Source: a virus
Taxonomy: Duplodnaviria > Heunggongvirae > Uroviricota > Caudoviricetes
Length of the DNA: 29,033 nucleotides
IMG/VR virus record: IMGVR_UViG_2896607866_000010
Reading direction: 5' to 3' (one strand)
The notes under the pieces were generated by a model, which saw only the letters and a program-made list of their open reading frames with translations, ran no database searches and had not been told where the DNA came from. Of this stretch, positions 15,304 through 15,613 are shown one piece after another. The first letter of the stretch is position 1. Each line of letters begins with the position of its first letter. Both the position numbers and the translations under genes were made by a program.

Positions 15304-15378
15304 TGGAGCGGGCAGCGGGAATCGAACCCGCATCATCAGCTTGGAAGGCTGAGGTAATAGCCATTATACGATGCCCGC
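15304..15378 (-). tRNA. tRNA-Gly (anticodon UCC), glyT-like
   Basis: Hand-folded cloverleaf; acceptor GCGGGCA/TGCCCGC, anticodon loop CUUCCAA, T-loop TTCGATT, encoded CCA. Confidence 0.8.
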
Positions 15379-15381
15379 ATA

Positions 15382-15456
15382 TGGTGCGACTACCGGAATC
15401 GAACTGGTGACCTACTGATTACAAGTCAGTTGCTCTGCCTGCTGAGCTAAGTCGGC
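15382..15456 (-). tRNA. tRNA-Thr (anticodon UGU)-like, thrU-like, with an imperfect acceptor stem (possible pseudo-tRNA)
   Basis: D-arm, a perfect anticodon stem with loop CUUGUAA, and the T-arm fold well; the 3' acceptor strand reads AGTCGC where AGTCGGC is needed to pair with 5' GCCGACT (one base short). Confidence 0.55.
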
Positions 15457-15458
15457 GC

Positions 15459-15535
15459 TGGCCCACCACCGAGGACTCGAACCTCGCACCGTCAACTTAG
15501 AAGGTTGATGCTCTATCCGGATGAGCTAGTGGTGG
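15459..15535 (-). tRNA. tRNA-Arg (anticodon UCU), phage argN/argU-like
   Basis: Cloverleaf with anticodon loop CUUCUAA, T-loop TTCGAGT, acceptor CCACCAC/GTGGTGG and encoded CCA; unusual C at position 1. Confidence 0.7.
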
Positions 15536-15536
15536 T

Positions 15537-15613
15537 TGGTGGCCCTTGCTGGACTTGAACCAGCGACCTGGCGATTATGAGTCGCTCGCTCTGACCAACT
15601 GAGCTAAAGGGCC
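15537..15613 (-). tRNA. tRNA with CAU anticodon, most similar to tRNA-Ile2 (ileX/ileZ-like); Met not excluded
   Basis: Cloverleaf with acceptor GGCCCTT/AAGGGCC, anticodon loop CUCAUAA, T-loop TTCAAGT and encoded CCA; resembles E. coli ileX as recalled. Confidence 0.75.

Follow-up and report, generated by a model that had tools for sequence, protein, structure and literature searches.

What is a run of four back-to-back tRNA genes doing inside a prophage, and is the one with a damaged acceptor stem still a working tRNA gene? Both questions are raised by positions 15304-15613 of IMG/VR virus record IMGVR_UViG_2896607866_000010, a stretch of 29,033 nucleotides (nt) referred to here as the window. 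The four genes form a known and widely annotated tRNA cassette of the lambdoid prophages of Escherichia coli and Shigella. The reading that we favour, with good though not complete confidence, is that the four genes are a mobile tRNA operon, one copy of which lies here in an ipaH-carrying prophage that has degraded and is of the Shigella flexneri type, with codon supply as its likeliest role. The only feature specific to the window is a one-base deletion that has probably killed the Thr gene in an S. flexneri lineage, within general prophage decay.

The four tRNA genes and their origin

In the 29-kb window ARAGORN calls four tRNA genes and no more; all lie on the minus strand, and between them they fill 15304-15613 (Table 1). 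The Rfam tRNA model RF00005 calls the same four at 55.9-70.5 bits (E 1e-9 to 1e-13), well above its gathering score of 29 bits. In the direction of transcription the order is tRNA(CAU), Arg(UCU), Thr(UGU) and Gly(UCC), and the spacers read from the sequence are A, GC and TAT. A first-pass annotation, made without database searches, had the coordinates, the gene order and the 1-3 nt separation right, and the covariance scoring that it proposed is given by the Rfam values; the strand was missing from it. The 3′ CCA is encoded in all four genes. An uninterrupted acceptor stem of 7 base pairs (bp), followed by the discriminator base and CCA, is present in the Ile, Arg and Gly genes and is missing in Thr. 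We also considered that these might be host tRNA genes marking the prophage attachment site. This was ruled out: the cassette is internal to the prophage, with Q on one side and the holin gene on the other, and is present in free phages.

The CAU anticodon of the first gene could denote either methionine or the minor isoleucine tRNA. A CAU anticodon on an ileX- or ileY-like body with C4-G69 and C5-G68 constitutes the identity elements for E. coli TilS. The gene is about 92% identical to ileX of E. coli K-12, its acceptor strands (GGCCCTT and AAGGGCC) keep the C4-G69 and C5-G68 pairs, and the NCBI pipeline labels the identical sequence tRNA-Ile in FDAARGOS_944. We therefore assign it, on sequence grounds, as an Ile2-type (lysidine) tRNA that would read AUA after modification; both lysidine formation and charging with isoleucine are predicted. 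It should be annotated as tRNA-Ile2 and not as Met. We note that the anticodon stem of this tRNA is reduced to 4 bp by an A27/C43 mismatch, at a position where G27 pairs with U43 in host ileX. Nearly all of about 130 copies keep the mismatch, ileZ of the Shiga toxin (Stx) phages among them.

The second gene begins with C, which the first-pass annotation had singled out. C1 is indeed there, and ARAGORN pairs it with G72 in a full 7-bp acceptor stem; the Rfam alignment of the gene has zero mispairs. The resemblance to argU is only distant, and the body is that of argN of the Stx2 phages. To place C1 in its family, 29 distinct argN-family sequences from the fetched loci and a viral-contig scan were aligned. 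C1-G72 occurs in 27 of them. Standard pairs fill 97.7% of the cloverleaf cells, and five pairs have changed on both sides in a compensatory manner, three of these in the acceptor stem: 3-70 (A-U/G-C), 4-69 (C-G/U-A) and 7-66 (C-G/U-A). When the pairing partner was slid by 1-3 columns as a control, the covariation fell to near zero. C1 is thus a conserved and structurally sound trait of the family, not a defect, and the anomaly suspected earlier is the family norm; C1 should be annotated as normal. The arginine identity set of E. coli, recognised by arginyl-tRNA synthetase, comprises A20, C35, U36 and G or A at 73. All its elements are present in the cassette gene, which has A20, C35, U36, G73 and the anticodon loop CUUCUAA; the D-loop ATCCGGATA puts A20 as in argU.

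The last two genes are of host type. The Gly gene, described earlier as glyT-like, matches K-12 glyT at 75 of 75 positions, and 88 of 104 sampled cassette copies are likewise identical to glyT. For Thr, 49 cassette copies are identical to K-12 thrU. These identities, taken with the cassette layouts described below, indicate that the four-gene cassette is a composite, in which an ileZ-argN pair of phage type has been joined to a thrU-glyT pair derived from the host. The TAT spacer between Thr and Gly was tried as proof that tyrU had been lost precisely from the host operon. The spacer would fit such a loss (T after thrU plus AT before glyT), and the argument was dropped because 3 nt are too few and other copies have TGT or TTT.

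Table 1. Coordinates of the tRNA cassette and of its flanking elements in the window
Feature	Position	Strand	Remarks
tRNA(CAU), ileZ/ileX type, predicted tRNA-Ile2	15537..15613	minus	77 nt, CCA encoded; ARAGORN; Rfam 70.5 bits
tRNA-Arg(UCU), argN-type body, C1-G72	15459..15535	minus	77 nt, CCA encoded; ARAGORN; Rfam 56.4 bits
tRNA-Thr(UGU), thrU derivative with one-G deletion, probable pseudogene	15382..15456	minus	75 nt; Rfam 55.9 bits
tRNA-Gly(UCC), identical to host glyT	15304..15378	minus	75 nt, CCA encoded; ARAGORN; Rfam 64.9 bits
Sigma-70 promoter-like element	15623..15651	minus	TTGCAG, 17 nt, TATTAT
Intrinsic-terminator-like hairpin, tR′ position	15701..15731	minus	GAGCCCGC-UUUAU-GCGGG then U7; read from sequence
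Q-like late antiterminator gene	15803..16357	minus	184 aa; Pfam DUF1133 E 4e-107; PHROG 753 E 9e-80
Class II holin gene, 5′ fragment	14480..14613	minus	Pfam Phage_holin_2_1, profile positions 1-44 of 64 only

The missing G of the Thr gene

Relative to K-12 thrU, the Thr gene of the window carries two substitutions in the D-loop (U16C and U20C) and has lost one G from the GG of its 3′ acceptor strand. The strand reads AGTCGC, against AGTCGGC in K-12 thrU and in the cassette copies without the deletion. Both the thrU-like character and the defective acceptor stem had been recognised in the first-pass annotation. ARAGORN draws an acceptor stem of only 5 bp. In the Infernal fit the deletion falls opposite C3, so that G1-C and C2-G are followed by a bulged C3 and the stem has 6 bp. 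The Rfam score of the allele is 13.9 bits below the 69.8 bits of the intact one. About 7 kcal/mol of cloverleaf energy are lost (-13.8 to -14.4 against -21.5 kcal/mol), and in the minimum-energy fold of the deleted allele the acceptor stem is gone.

Threonyl-tRNA synthetase recognises G1-C72 and C2-G71 in a regular acceptor helix, together with G35 and U36. G35 and U36 are present here; the G1-C and C2-G pairs form only with C3 bulged and are lost in the other register. Judged from these models, the gene is most likely non-functional, and we suggest that it be flagged as a probable pseudogene at this locus in S. flexneri. Its loss should be harmless, since host thrU and intact sister cassettes stay in the same type of genome.

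A one-base change in the length of a short homopolymer invites the suspicion of a sequencing or assembly error in the GG run of a Thr gene that is truly intact, and prophages 99.7% identical to the window do carry GG. The identical deletion is nevertheless found at the same locus in two independent assemblies, those of S. flexneri SFBU1023 and 'E. coli' ECMA0423 (loci L022 and L026). Each of these genomes has four copies of the cassette, and the other three copies in each carry GG. ECMA0423 has a genome of 4.44 Mb and the same IS-rich layout (IS, insertion sequence). Because the lesion recurs at one locus in two further assemblies whose remaining copies are intact, the deletion appears to be a real, lineage-specific mutation and an artefact is hardly credible. 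The earlier caveat that a misread sequence might turn out fully canonical is answered by the same recurrence. The deleted allele did not turn up in any of the 5,426 complete E. coli genomes or in about 105 further Thr copies from cassettes. It was not found in a metagenome scan either, a result that is uninformative.

Predicted expression and likely role

Upstream of the first tRNA lies a promoter-like element of the sigma-70 type (Table 1), whose -10 hexamer ends 9 nt before the gene with a GC-rich stretch in between; a scanner reports it as TTTGCA-18-TATTAT. The motif TTGCA(N) with TAT(T/C)AT at constant spacing is shared by 10 distinct upstream sequences, which represent about six unrelated contexts, and the sequence of the spacer varies among them. 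In K-12 ileX, TATAAT stands 10 nt before the mature 5′ end, which is nearly the same distance. A 'pS tRNA promoter' has been named between q and tRNA-Ile in an Stx2 phage of O157:H7 (PMC2858043). We infer a promoter function for TTGCAG-17-TATTAT from its sequence and that of its relatives.

Transcription, processing, charging and benefit of the cassette are predicted here as follows. The operon would be transcribed in lysogens from its own conserved sigma-70-type promoter; on induction, Q-modified polymerase starting at the late promoter would read through the upstream terminator into it. One precursor RNA would result. As CCA is encoded and the spacers measure 1-3 nt, a cut by RNase P at the 5′ end of each downstream tRNA should leave the upstream one in need of exonucleolytic trimming only. 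Separation by RNase P alone is established for closely spaced tRNA operons of E. coli. The mature tRNAs would read AUA, AGA/AGG, ACA/ACG and GGA/GGG.

Codon use in 20 non-IS open reading frames (ORFs) of the window was compared with that in 42 K-12 housekeeping genes, as the share within each amino-acid family. AUA makes up 20% of Ile codons in the window ORFs and 4% in the K-12 genes, and AGA plus AGG 21% and 3.5% of Arg codons. The corresponding shares are 25% and 10% for ACA among Thr codons and 17% and 8% for GGA among Gly codons. The enrichment in prophage and ipaH ORFs is thus 2-6-fold (p 1e-5 to 5e-19), and the control codon AAA is unchanged between the two sets. In ipaH itself, 40% of the Arg codons are AGA or AGG. 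Because host genes seldom use the codons that the cassette serves, and the prophage and ipaH are enriched in them, its likeliest role would be to add to the decoding capacity available to phage and cargo genes. The position of tRNAs downstream of Q and the idea that they supply rare codons have already been published (PMC3636060). Of the two functions suggested in the first-pass annotation, this is the one that its own proposed codon check supports, in a correlative way; the other, a counter to tRNA-depleting defences, is not supported for Thr and Gly, whose anticodon arms are identical to those of the host.

Several points weigh against the codon-supply reading and its parts. The support from codon bias is correlative, and horizontally acquired DNA that is AT-rich would have such a bias anyway. 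A single promoter hexamer match is what chance would be expected to give, which leaves conservation as the case for the promoter. A bulged 6-bp stem with G1-C72 and C2-G71 could leave the Thr tRNA partly active. Damaging changes occur in other copies of the cassette, namely Thr A9G, broken anticodon stems, a decayed Gly gene (RMDEC332) and IS insertions, and such sporadic damage suggests that selection is weak in many lysogens.

The anti-defence alternative deserves a closer look. It holds that replacement tRNAs survive tRNA nucleases of host or prophage, for instance P2-OLD, PARIS AriB, PrrC, HepS or colicin D, and so keep phage translation going once the host tRNAs have been cut. P2-OLD kills by cleaving host tRNA-Thr(UGU), its targets there being two CNG motifs of the anticodon stem; phage Thr(UGU) tRNAs, that of lambdoid phage 21 included, rescue the cell because their stems differ (PMC12445682). 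HepS cuts Thr and Ile tRNAs (PMC13043305). The anticodon stems of the cassette Ile and Arg tRNAs do differ from those of host ileX and argU, the Ile stem having 4 bp with A27/C43. The Thr anticodon arm is, however, that of host thrU with both CNG motifs kept, and extra host tRNA-ThrU is reported to protect little or not at all (PMC12445682). Gly is 100% glyT, the Arg and Ile anticodon loops equal the host loops, and there is no known nuclease for which the stem differences of Ile and Arg would matter. With host-type sequences at these sites, the anti-defence reading appears to lack support for this cassette and we regard it as improbable; the diverged Ile and Arg stems leave it a small opening.

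The cassette could also be a neutral passenger, of no use in Shigella, a relic in dead prophages that decays slowly and in which the missing G is one step. The prophage has been stripped of its lysis genes and is full of IS elements; elsewhere, cassette copies bear IS insertions or harmful changes, and two of the four copies in S. flexneri have a damaged Thr gene. Set against this, the window copy has kept three of its four genes intact, most of about 100 copies show no variation in Gly and Ile, both hexamers of the promoter have been conserved, and the argN body shows compensatory evolution. Moreover ipaH, a cargo gene that is still functional, is very rich in AGA, AGG and AUA. The passenger explanation therefore seems to us unlikely, about as much so as the defence one, and codon supply is retained as the preferred role.

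A more specific version of codon supply can be put forward as a conjecture, one that we think rather doubtful. Beyond any aid to phage growth, the cassette would be a constitutively expressed module on its own pS-type promoter, kept by S. flexneri in about four copies on ipaH prophage remnants because it raises translation of AGA/AGG/AUA-rich type III effectors, IpaH among them. If this were true, the dosage of prophage tRNAs would tune the output of virulence proteins, and damaged copies, such as Thr here, would mark the tRNAs that are dispensable. If the own promoter and the link to ipaH codons both hold, the cassettes would add in a small way to the expression of effectors in Shigella. A literature search for reports of the cassette in ipaH prophages yielded nothing specific, and one by the names ileZ and argN found no openly available papers. 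Beyond correct annotation the significance is small, the cassette being a routine feature of lambdoid prophages.

Related cassettes and the prophage setting

Among the nearest known counterparts is the ileZ-argN-argO cluster of the Stx phages (933W/Stx2 type), whose position the first-pass annotation had invoked. The slot is the same, after Q and its terminators and before toxin or lysis genes, as are the distance to the first tRNA and the conserved promoter-like element. The proposed alignment bears out the comparison, the first two window genes being homologous to ileZ and argN. Three differences separate the first from Stx ileZ, namely two substitutions and an additional base in the D-loop, and the second has the same body as argN with C1-G72, as aligned with Stx2a_F349. 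Stx argN, in contrast, has the anticodon UCG where the window has UCU. The Stx cluster ends at three genes, with argO (Arg UCU) as the third, whereas the window has four, including the thrU-like and glyT-like pair. Toxin genes follow the tRNAs in Stx phages and none follows them here. Because its second gene has UCU and is followed by Thr(UGU) and Gly(UCC), the window cassette is a sister arrangement, and a common one (14 of 80 IMG/VR loci).

The host thrU-tyrU-glyT-thrT operon of K-12 resembles the second half of the cassette: Gly equals glyT, Thr equals thrU with two D-loop changes, and Thr precedes Gly. The cassette, unlike the host operon, has no tyrU, no 116-nt spacer, no thrT and no tufB, only TAT standing between Thr and Gly. 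Its pair is fused behind the phage Ile and Arg genes and carries the one-G acceptor deletion. Phages SfI, Sf6, ST64T, PS3 and 21 also place one or two tRNAs, often Thr(UGU), downstream of Q, for which the published rationale is supply of ACA codons (PMC3636060). They differ in carrying Asn(GUU) and/or a diverged Thr(UGU). The Thr tRNA of phage 21 has an altered anticodon stem and is resistant to P2-OLD (PMC12445682), while that of the window keeps the host anticodon arm.

The same four-gene layout is seen in a sister cassette, CAU-'Lys'(UUU)-Thr-Gly, found in the PPompW, PhiR47_1 and APEC O1 prophages. It shares the Ile, Thr and Gly genes and an argN-type second body; its second tRNA has the loop CCUUUAA, C33 and U73, against CUUCUAA and G73 in the window. 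This CCUUUAA form, labelled tRNA-Lys, with a UUU anticodon and C33 in place of the near-universal U33, is the commonest argN-type variant in the viral sample (loci L001, L020, L023, L033 and many of L035-L154). An Arg-type body with a switched anticodon and no U33 could be a Lys tRNA that evades a nuclease, or a non-functional one. A second anticodon switch occurs in the third tRNA of L005 and L141, a thrU-type body with UUU for UGU that is also labelled tRNA-Lys.

The cassette or close variants of it, at a query coverage of at least 80%, occur in 601 of 5,426 complete E. coli genomes, where the genes are annotated as tRNA-Ile, Arg, Thr and Gly, and in the free phages vB_EcoS-689R5, PhiR47_1 and phi467. 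It sits between Q and holin in several prophage backbones and behind several unrelated Q genes. A layout census of 80 viral contigs (IMG/VR loci) that hold an argN-type tRNA gave 33 with CAU-'Lys'(UUU)-Thr-Gly, 16 with the Stx-type CAU-Arg(UCG)-Arg(UCU) and 14 with the window-type CAU-Arg(UCU)-Thr-Gly. The Thr-Gly pair stands alone in Citrobacter and Escherichia ruysiae. In Enterobacter hormaechei (L017) the pair is decayed and the Thr gene has an Ile-type 5′ end; this chimeric tRNA (6268-6420) joins an Ile-type 5′ acceptor strand to a Thr body and apparently arose by deletion between shared TTAGCTCAG segments. Elsewhere an IS element lies in the 3′ end of the Ile tRNA (L010 and L012, about 3318-3324), and a degenerate Gly gene is called tRNA-Val (L031, 1764-1834).

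The minus strand upstream of the cassette encodes a QueH homologue, hok/sok, a Qin-type Rem, DUF1367, YbcO and the Q-like antiterminator. The last also gives a weaker match to Phage_antitermQ, and phrog_753 is described as 'anti-termination protein Q-like'. Strong structure is predicted for the 189-nt spacer that separates Q from the tRNAs (z = -4.2), and the GC-rich terminator hairpin appears in that fold as a stable element. An equivalent hairpin of the form CCCGCC...GGCGGG-T-run lies upstream of most related cassettes. A simple terminator scanner run on the window did not list the hairpin at 15701..15731, probably because the stem can run into the T run.

Downstream, the order of Q, hairpin, tRNAs and holin agrees with the position between the Q terminator and the lysis genes given by the first-pass annotation, although here only a remnant of the lysis genes is left. 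The window is colinear with, and 99.7% identical to, an intact prophage of FDAARGOS_944 that has holin, the lysozyme RrrD and Rz after its tRNAs. BLAST against an intact relative (L003) reveals that about 970 bp have been deleted, the junction lying at 14470-14480, and that the 3′ end of holin, lysozyme and Rz went with them; the stretch absent from the window is 5161-6130 of the L003 locus. Relative to the FDAARGOS_944 prophage, the window has gained an IS3-family element at 12418-13666. The ipaH effector gene lies at 1-1812 on the plus strand, opposite to the phage late genes (NCBIfam NF046045, 563 bits). The prophage is thus of the Shigella type, carries ipaH and has degraded, and the Thr lesion fits the decay of the whole prophage, with its deleted lysis genes and IS insertions.

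Further features of the prophage can be listed. The product of 1-1812 is an IpaH-family E3 ubiquitin-ligase effector. IS copies, of the IS3 family and others, lie at 12418-13666, 20961-22211, 2611-3874, about 9650-10930 and 24660-25990, and include two identical elements of 1.25 kb; this IS load and the loss of lysis genes are typical of Shigella genome decay. The Rem protein (17282-17569) was considered as part of a RemAIN anticodon nuclease and ruled out: its Pfam 'Rem' match is a 95-aa protein, unlike the RemAIN trio of ATPase, immunity protein and HEPN nuclease. We take the gene to be the small rem gene of the Qin prophage. The QueH homologue (epoxyqueuosine reductase; 18202-18888, minus strand; Pfam E 2e-65, PHROG 3217) lies in the nin region. 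It is a tRNA-modification enzyme that acts on tRNAs with GUN anticodons, of which the cassette has none.

Between tRNA-Gly and holin, the ORFs at 15044-15259 and 14830-15123 have no Pfam or PHROG match, and this stretch as a whole gave no match in the phage database. About 1,500 E. coli records contain unannotated DNA that is roughly 85% similar to some 350 nt of it (14655-15004), and more than 600 of the similar sites are on plasmids, beside iss and Rz remnants. From these plasmid sites we take the segment to be a widespread remnant of a lambdoid late region. A near-perfect hairpin of about 27 bp plus 5 bp occupies 15098-15192 on the minus strand, 110-200 nt downstream of tRNA-Gly, in DNA that has no annotated gene; z is -4.4 for the fold of the 219-nt stretch around it. 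The hairpin could serve to process or terminate the tRNA transcript. A low-threshold Rfam search of the tRNA-Gly-to-holin stretch returned only spurious microRNA matches to this long hairpin. Two further sets of small RNAs were seen. Within the prophage, at 17819-18144 on the minus strand, a hok-type toxin ORF is accompanied by its sok antisense RNA (Rfam 117 bits). An isrK-like RNA (61.5 bits) and a C4 antisense RNA (75.7 bits) stand back to back at 26501-26689 on the plus strand, upstream of an ORF for a Rha-family regulator; the pair looks like a region for antirepressor control of the P1/Gifsy type, belonging to a second prophage fragment.

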